DNA of 63,125 bases, filler included, from Stramenopiles sp. TOSAG23-6 (taxonomy: Eukaryota), in assembly GCA_900128565.1 (NCBI GenBank). It is 26 parts of 26 records of this genome, joined end to end, with 100 filler letters (N's around TTAATTAATTAA, not from the genome) between each part and the next. Parts side by side here need not be neighbours in the genome. Positions count along the whole stretch, not along the records: positions 4,889 to 7,232 come from LT638109.1; 25 more parts are not named here. One strand, written 5' to 3'. Below the pieces are notes generated by a model, which ran no database searches, was not told where the DNA came from, and saw only the letters and a list, made by a program, of their open reading frames with translations. Of this stretch, positions 5,003-5,440 are shown one piece after another. Both the position numbers and the translations under genes were made by a program. Position 1 is the first letter of the stretch. The number at the start of each line of letters is the position of its first letter.

Positions 5003-5440
5003 TATAAAGCAGAAGAGGCAAAACCATTACAATATACATTTGATACCGGCAGTTACAAAACGATTTATCCACCCCATTTTGCTTGGGGTATTAGGGTTAG
5101 GGTTAAAGCTGTCACGAAATATCTAATTGTTGATGCTAATCGTGTTGGTGAGGACGGAAGTGAAATAGCTGAAGTGTCTCTCAGTTTCGTAGCAGTATTT
5201 GCATCACCAATATTGATCAAAAATATTTCACCAGTAGATAATATTCAAAATAATGTATTAAGTACAGAATTTTGTACCAAAAAAAACATACATTCGAAAT
5301 TGGAACAAAAACAAGATGAAAAAAATGAAAAACACGAAAAACACGAAAACATAGATGGTACAAATGAAAATATATGGTATAATTGTAATTATGGAATGTG
5401 TGAATGTTTATATTCATCTATTGATATACTTTTTGATTAG
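5003..5440 (+). CDS. Hypothetical protein, last exon
   Basis: About 145 open codons in very AT-rich DNA (KAEEAKPLQYTFDTGSY...SIDILFD*); start approximate. Confidence 0.5.
   Translation, partial: YKAEEAKPLQYTFDTGSYKTIYPPHFAWGIRVRVKAVTKYLIVDANRVGEDGSEIAEVSLSFVAVFASPILIKNISPVDNIQNNVLSTEFCTKKNIHSKLEQKQDEKNEKHEKHENIDGTNENIWYNCNYGMCECLYSSIDILFD

Follow-up and report, generated by a model that had tools for sequence, protein, structure and literature searches.

The site described here lies on a contig (positions 4889-7232) that opens with the 3′ part of an intron and continues on the plus strand into the presumed last exon of an orphan gene, which contains sequence related to a repeated intron element in the opposite orientation. 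All positions count along the window, the whole 63,125-base stretch of DNA that was analyzed, which consists of 26 contigs of ~2.3 kb joined by N44-TTAATTAATTAA-N44 in descending order of size. The DNA is eukaryotic and rich in AT (22 to 36% G+C per 2 kb). Three contigs (48700-51021, 51122-53443, and 53544-55865) are equal in length, ends, and positions of N and look triplicated, two others (14663-17005 and 26847-29177) have ends in common, and contig breaks fall inside the intron element in many cases. The features at the site are as follows.

4889..5005, plus strand: 3′ part of a sense intron (CCCTAA-bearing variant) truncated at the contig start, with CTAAC and then 32 bases ending in ...CAAATAT
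5006..5440, plus strand: presumed last exon of an orphan gene, with its stop at 5438-5440, containing the antisense copy
5208..5356, minus strand: probable whole decayed antisense copy of the element (profile-aligned part 5217-5305; ends approximate)
5356/5354 (5′, AT followed by CTATGTTTT) and 5208-5210 (3′), minus strand: likely ends of the antisense copy, from reading of the sequence
5346..5356, minus strand: terminus-like ATCTATGTTTT, corresponding to the family 5′ terminus ATGTAYGTTTT with GT changed to CT
5327..5344, plus strand: GAAAAACAC twice in tandem (EKHEKH), an in-frame 9-base repeat in the T-rich 5′ part of the antisense copy
5292..5301, minus strand: family-internal motif AATTTCGAAT (9 matches in the window), directly 5′ of the supposed donor
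5253..5293, minus strand: flagged stretch with donor-like ATGTATG, T-run, palindromic core, and ATACAT, which we read as the middle of a larger copy
5262..5277, minus strand: 16-base palindromic core GTACAAAATTCTGTAC, with 2 mismatches to the family form GTACGAAATTTTGTAC
5219..5230, minus strand: family 3′-half motif TGAAATATTTTT (15 matches in the window), 23 bases past the ATACAT "end"

A preliminary description of this DNA had singled out the flagged stretch. Its sequence holds letter for letter (minus strand 5293..5253, ATGTATGTTTTTTTTGGTACAAAATTCTGTACTTAATACAT), as does the statement that plus-strand positions 5255-5293 form 13 codons (VLSTEFCTKKNIH) of the only long frame. This stop-free frame runs from 4991 to 5440 (149 codons) and is the sole frame of at least 70 codons over the site.

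The element belongs to an abundant family of introns. Its palindrome, GTACGAAATTTTGTAC with variants, has 74 matches in the window at up to 3 mismatches, against 1.42 expected, and profile searches found 52 matches at E < 1e-3 in the 63 kb, with the triplicated contig counted three times. The anatomy of a full copy is AT/GTAYGTTTT...(T-rich)...TTTCGAATTTAT...TTTTTC GTACGAAATTTTGTAC CTAAC...TTTGAAATATTTTTCCAAAATACAT/, where slashes mark the boundaries; full copies measure 88 to 118 bases and spliced copies 86 to 118. Removal of the copy clearly yields longer joined ORFs on the sense strand in 11 of 13 full copies, the other two being undecidable, and on the antisense strand in none of the 13. 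The dinucleotide AT directly precedes 11 of 14 distinct listed copies by our own count; an empty site was not encountered. The 5′ pattern ATNTAYGTTTT has 24 matches in the window; of those compared with the listed copies, most mark the start of one. As in introners, many near-identical copies interrupt unrelated genes as introns, which the focal copy does not. An automatic orientation census from the codon scores of the flanks (24 sense, 3 antisense, and 32 unclear) was discarded: one of its antisense calls, at 58385, is on ORF reading a sense intron before an exon that we take, by eye, to be J-domain-like, and the focal site was placed under "unclear."

Several family members show additional structure. 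In the intact copy 4169-4263 (+), three nested pairings are formed by the termini, by TTTCGAA/TTTGAAA, and by the central palindrome (-10.1 kcal/mol, z -2.27), so that the whole element can be described as a nested inverted repeat. The copies 8366-8472 (+) and 63029-63125 (+) carry a second internal unit resembling the 5′ end (GTATGTTTT or TTTATGTTTT) upstream of the palindrome, and such units could supply alternative donors and be mistaken for "mini" elements. A telomere-like AACCCTAACCCTAA stands near the 5′ end of one element variant (4889-4898, 7560-7573, and 49401-49414), and on the opposite strand the same hexamer also codes for PNPN repeats in exons, e.g., at 5700-5780. Outside the window, the environmental metagenome contig MDTB01012742.1 (34.5% G+C) holds a full-length sense-type copy (L001, 1463-1565, minus strand; 40.9 bits) with the anatomy AT/GTATG...ACAT/. 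No other locus in the metagenome collection matched the element-core pattern exactly, and this one is uninformative on antisense copies.

Profile alignment extends the similarity at the focal site well beyond the flagged bases. A profile of 8 full copies aligned minus-strand positions 5308..5212 to model positions 12-100 of 104 (17.2 bits, E 2e-4), compared with 7.0 bits on the plus strand, where the palindrome core only was matched. A profile of 13 copies aligned 5305..5217 on the minus strand with 16.8 bits, a score that none of 1,000 dinucleotide shuffles of 5190-5370 reached (best shuffle, 5.6). When the 41-base core was kept and the flanks were shuffled, 8 of 1,000 reached the real score (mean 12.5, SD 1.3), which indicates that the flanks add signal; with the core masked, the flanks alone gave no profile match (-2.0 bits). 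Motif distribution points in the same direction. Seven of the nine matches to AATTTCGAAT lie inside element intervals of the same strand, the focal site among them, as do 14 of the 15 matches to TGAAATATTTTT (again including the focal one), with the remaining match in an interval of the opposite strand and none outside. The 21-mer ATTTCGAATNTATGTTTTTTT occurs in the window only at the focal site and in copy 63029-63125, and internal TTTCGAAT(TTAT), the T-run, and the palindrome GTACGAAATTTTGTAC follow one another at the focal copy in family order, with AATTTCGAAT at 5301-5292. At the peptide level, VFWKNISKKNSLGTKFRTQKNINSKLKKIKN, which copy 63029 gives when read backwards, runs parallel to the focal ILIKNIS...LSTEFCTKKNIHSKLEQKQD from end to end, the focal frame itself reading ILIKNISPVDNIQNNVLSTEFCTKKNIHSKLEQKQD.

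The splice signals of the focal copy differ from those of the family. The CTAAC that follows the palindrome is absent and the site reads CTTAAT, while the 3′ half retains TGAAATATTTTT and has a degenerate terminus, GATCAATAT / ATTG, where the family ends in ...AAAATACAT. At the 5′ end, ATNTAYGTTTT has two matches on the focal minus strand, at 5293 (ATGTATGTTTT) and at 5356 (ATCTATGTTTT), one of which, if either, would be the original end. The copy measures 145 or 147 bases under two readings of the degenerate termini, the longer being ungapped at both. Since ~145 bases exceeds the 86 to 118 bases of spliced copies, internal duplications must be assumed, and repetition is seen within the copy: the minus strand carries two occurrences of GTGTTTTTC, and the 3′ half holds another unit like TTTGAATATT. 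The only long ORF lies on the strand opposite the copy, and the minus-strand frames score negative by codon usage on both sides of the copy. On this reading of the sequence, the region would be a single diverged antisense copy in which all three splice signals have decayed (GT to CT, CTAAC to CTTAAT, and loss of the ACAT end). The preliminary description had explained survival by a length that is a stop-free multiple of three. The segment is indeed open in frame, and the length argument, if it applies at all, concerns the whole copy; because both of its ends are degenerate and 145 and 147 bases are both readable, insertion in frame is not demonstrated.

The host ORF was evaluated by codon log-odds trained on 25 ORFs of at least 200 codons from the window. 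Its frame scores +22.9 over the 67 codons before the copy, +15.2 over the 50 within it, and +9.8 over the 27 after it; all other frames are negative, and after the copy they stand at -0.4 and -48.8. The value before the copy is typical of real 67-codon coding windows (mean 21.7, SD 10.9, n = 123) and is reached by 4 of 53 shadow open frames. The same frame is favored on both sides of the copy, which is compatible with in-frame insertion. Upstream, 4889-5005 aligns with two sense introns of the CCCTAA-bearing variant and ends at 5005 in phase with the ORF. These results speak against the alternative that the antisense copy is non-coding, with coding sequence ending upstream or the ORF being no gene and the copy lying in 3′ untranslated or intergenic DNA whose open frame on an A-rich strand is accidental. 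The codon scores of the N part resemble those of real exons, the codons past the copy favor the same frame, the sense intron stops exactly at 5005, in phase with that frame, and no in-frame stop follows the coding-like N part before 5438, so that a ribosome entering from 5006-5206 would read through. We regard the non-coding alternative as unlikely, and some of the data are of the kind it predicts. Of the 39 frames in which the 13 intact copies can be read backwards, 7 lack a stop, as expected by chance under that alternative; the frame used at the focal site, LGTKFRTKK in the consensus of backwards copies, is open in 3 of the 13, and the open frames of backwards copies have codon-usage scores of +6.4 to +8.5. 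Because backwards copies score positive anyway and the plus strand is A-rich, openness and codon score inside the focal copy are not evidence of selection, and given the 7 stop-free frames its survival needs no special explanation.

The remaining observations on the ORF characterize it as an orphan, and they too would be expected of non-coding DNA. No Pfam family matched the ORF and no homologue was returned by a word-index protein search; an exhaustive HMMER search of representatives gave two matches (P0001 and P0002), judged spurious as internally repetitive proteins aligned in 5 to 7 short stretches. A scan of metagenome contigs with the ORF protein gave 265 pattern matches, of which none was confirmed. 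The protein collection holds no CDS containing the ORF, though an annotated kinesin CDS from the window (P0004) is there. The ESM Atlas returned unnamed clusters only, with recognition below its stated threshold, and a single-sequence AlphaFold model of the ORF was unusable (mean pLDDT 38.8). Two DNA runs, probably the source data, were identical to the window over 4941-6008, and an allele without the segment was not seen in them. In two metatranscriptome runs, contigs fell only on portions of the neighboring minus-strand gene (5621-5847 and 6362-6672) and on low-complexity stretches, leaving 4968-5283 uncovered; the sole RNA piece on the ORF was a low-complexity 42-base match at 5308-5349 with 5 differences. 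Since the ORF has no homologue, the argument for insertion comes entirely from element similarity, and the argument for a real gene from codon usage, ORF length, and the upstream intron. Taken at this level, element-derived sequence appears to lie inside the open reading frame of an orphan gene.

Two shorter antisense cores lie in other long ORFs of the window in the same reading frame as the focal one, with 28 to 33 bases recognizable in each.

6972-6996, plus strand: second antisense core on the focal contig, inside minus-strand ORF 6074-7162, reading LGTEFRMKK
34567-34607, plus strand: kinesin antisense core (T-run, GTACAAAATTCTGTAC, CTA), inside minus-strand ORF 34192-35181, reading IGTEFCTKEKK

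The first is followed by a low-complexity run, SKNTKNSQNTQNSQNTK, that is the reverse of a T-rich tandem repeat. The second falls within the loop that links the P-loop (GSGKTYTM) to GLIPR in a kinesin-3-like protein, where KIF1A lacks 15 residues. This loop has 24 residues, compared with a median of 9 (range, 6 to 42) in 104 homologues with both motifs, 4 of which have a longer one. Among database proteins, eukprot GSMAST32.ASY1.ANO1.853.1 comes closest to a kinesin of the window. The annotated CDS P0004 omits exactly GTEFCTK (21 bases, GT...AG) at this core, a cut that was set aside as evidence of splicing; P0004 also omits conserved kinesin residues (TRTFNFDFSYSS) and is unreliable for that reason. 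All three antisense cores, which lie in unrelated ORFs, carry the AATTCTGTAC variant (5262-5277, 6978-6993, and 34574-34589), which elsewhere, among the matches listed, occurs only in the sense intron 10148-10163, and a 20-mer, TTTGGTACAAAATTCTGTAC, is identical between the focal and kinesin sites. In the frame used, AATTCTGTAC turns Lys into Glu (LSTEFCTKK at the focal site, LGTEFRMKK, and IGTEFCTKEKK). The variant may mark an older subfamily or selection at the protein level. A more far-reaching reading, which we consider improbable, is that the antisense core with short flanks constitutes a distinct, coding-compatible form: a subfamily able to enter exons or to persist there, or else a tiny intron that is spliced out at the core.

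The preliminary description had gone further for the focal site, reading the 39 bases as an independent deletion derivative that has its own GT...AT ends and an AT duplication, was inserted backwards, and survived as a multiple of three. The 41 bases do hold ATGTATG, the palindrome, and ATACAT, and with the ends paired as drawn there they fold at -6.9 kcal/mol (z -1.97), a value equaled by 11 of 200 shuffles, so that the fold alone is weak evidence. Short element-like pieces also occur in ORFs, as in the kinesin loop, where ~28 recognizable bases fall in an excess of ~15 residues. The boundaries of the proposed unit are where it fails. Its "perfect" donor, ATGTATGTTTT at 5293, has its counterpart in ATTTATGTTTT, an internal motif of copy 63029-63125, from which it departs by a single T>G change; the ATNTAYGTTTT match at 63055 is this same ATTTATGTTTT, it is preceded by TTTCGA as at the focal site, and 38 of 44 bases from AATTTCGAAT to CTAA, "donor" included, are identical between the two copies as counted on the alignment. 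We read the donor, given these matches, as an internal family motif, and the ATACAT "end" falls in the variable spacer 3′ of the palindrome. The bases that adjoin the unit are element, not host DNA, with AATTTCGAAT and TGAAATATTTTT on its two sides and the terminus-like motif at 5356, and neither separate termini nor an AT duplication is supported. A miniature derivative would have termini abutting non-element host DNA and other members of similar size. Here the flanks carry family motifs, and a loose grammar of donor, palindrome, and end found 10 instances in the window, of which the focal one measures 39 bases and the other nine measure 92 to 148, indicating that the window has no mini family. 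Two separate internal deletions would also be required. For these reasons a 39-base derivative is very unlikely, and of the earlier proposal of a shortened backwards element in an exon, the backwards copy in the only long ORF stands and the self-contained unit does not, as similarity continues on both sides. The site is also a warning that donor-like and end-like motifs inside an element can mimic a miniature copy.

The reading of the site as a very short plus-strand intron, from GT at 5255 to AT at 5293 (39 bases) or from GTACAG at 5262 to AG at 5315 (54 bases), would preserve the frame in both cases, with symmetric ends giving GT...AT on both strands and the 21-base piece missing from P0004 as a parallel at the same antisense core, but it is hardly credible given a plus strand that lacks CTAAC, spliced copies in the window of at least 86 bases, the defects of P0004, and no RNA in the contigs at the site.

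We conclude that the flagged 39 bases are probably the center of a diverged copy of the ~100-base GT...AT element (~5208-5356), antisense in the last exon of the plus-strand gene. The similarity to the family, the antisense orientation, and the open frame are direct observations; for the insertion history, transcription, and translation of the copy, we infer the following course. The element would insert as DNA in either orientation. Sense copies would be spliced out and hence persist, and antisense copies, which have no usable branch site, would normally be lost. The focal copy may have landed in a frame that the backwards element often leaves open, within a tolerant C-terminal region, and stayed as ~49 extra K/N/E-rich codons (PILIKNIS...LSTEFCTKKNIHSKLEQKQDEKNEKHEKHENID). 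Later decay would have turned the 5′ GT into CT and CTAAC into CTTAAT, removed the 3′ ACAT end, broken up the T-runs, and duplicated a 9-base unit. The donor-like GTATG would be the internal family motif with one substitution, and ATACAT a variant of the spacer.

Introner elements are intron-generating, MITE-like transposons that occur in Micromonas, Aureococcus, Polarella, Symbiodinium, and others; work on them was reportedly published by Huff et al. in 2016. The present family resembles introners in being multicopy, with look-alike introns of ~100 bases, inverted ends, and a 2-base flanking repeat, and in that sense-strand removal restores ORFs. It differs in that its copies end in AT, not AG, and the focal copy differs further in being no intron: it lies backwards, unspliceable, inside a reading frame. 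Exonized transposable elements are known from other lineages, among them the antisense Alu-derived exons of primates, which are the obvious analogue, and coding segments that plants have derived from MITEs. In these cases, as here, a non-autonomous antisense repeat gives codons to a host gene and then decays; unlike them, the focal copy brings no new splice sites and would seem to be read through in an existing exon, its expression being predicted.

Published excerpts on introners offer closer comparisons. According to part of the Polarella preprint (bioRxiv 10.1101/2020.10.14.339549), certain introner classes create introns in a single orientation and others in either, as has been reported for Aureococcus, and a passage of Gozashti et al. 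(bioRxiv 10.1101/2022.06.06.494994) states that splice sites are variously recruited from target-site duplications. The Amoebophrya introners, in the excerpted account (PMC7789003), have inverted repeats at their ends, short direct repeats at their boundaries, and non-canonical splice sites. These are features shared with the present family of repeated introns, which belongs to another organism and another sequence family, and the excerpt makes no mention of antisense coding copies. An extract of the Mesodinium preprint (bioRxiv 10.64898/2026.07.09.736142) describes exonization of short stop-free introns by loss of splice signals. As far as that extract goes, the parallel is that a gene tolerates a short stop-free stretch of intron origin as a few added residues, and the difference is that exonization there starts from an unspliced sense intron, whereas the focal copy is antisense and probably was never an intron of its host gene. 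No introner copy that is antisense, unspliceable, and kept within coding sequence was found among the titles, abstract openings, and cited passages of this literature, which does not prove that none exists.

The orientation of the focal copy bears on how the family spreads. Sense-only copies fit either DNA transposition or reverse splicing at the RNA level, and only insertion as DNA, regardless of the transcribed strand, would be expected to leave a backwards copy within an exon. The preliminary description had suggested the same orientation-independent mobility at the DNA level; the backwards copy in an ORF is what such insertion predicts, and the AT duplication that it had also invoked is unsupported. 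The value of the focal copy is as a pointer to strand-blind insertion at the DNA level, and it is a modest addition to the element family. If transcripts confirm the reading, the focal copy and the two shorter fossils would be direct evidence that this GT...AT family has spread as a DNA transposon, and would show that proteins can gain low-complexity peptide segments from failed antisense insertions.
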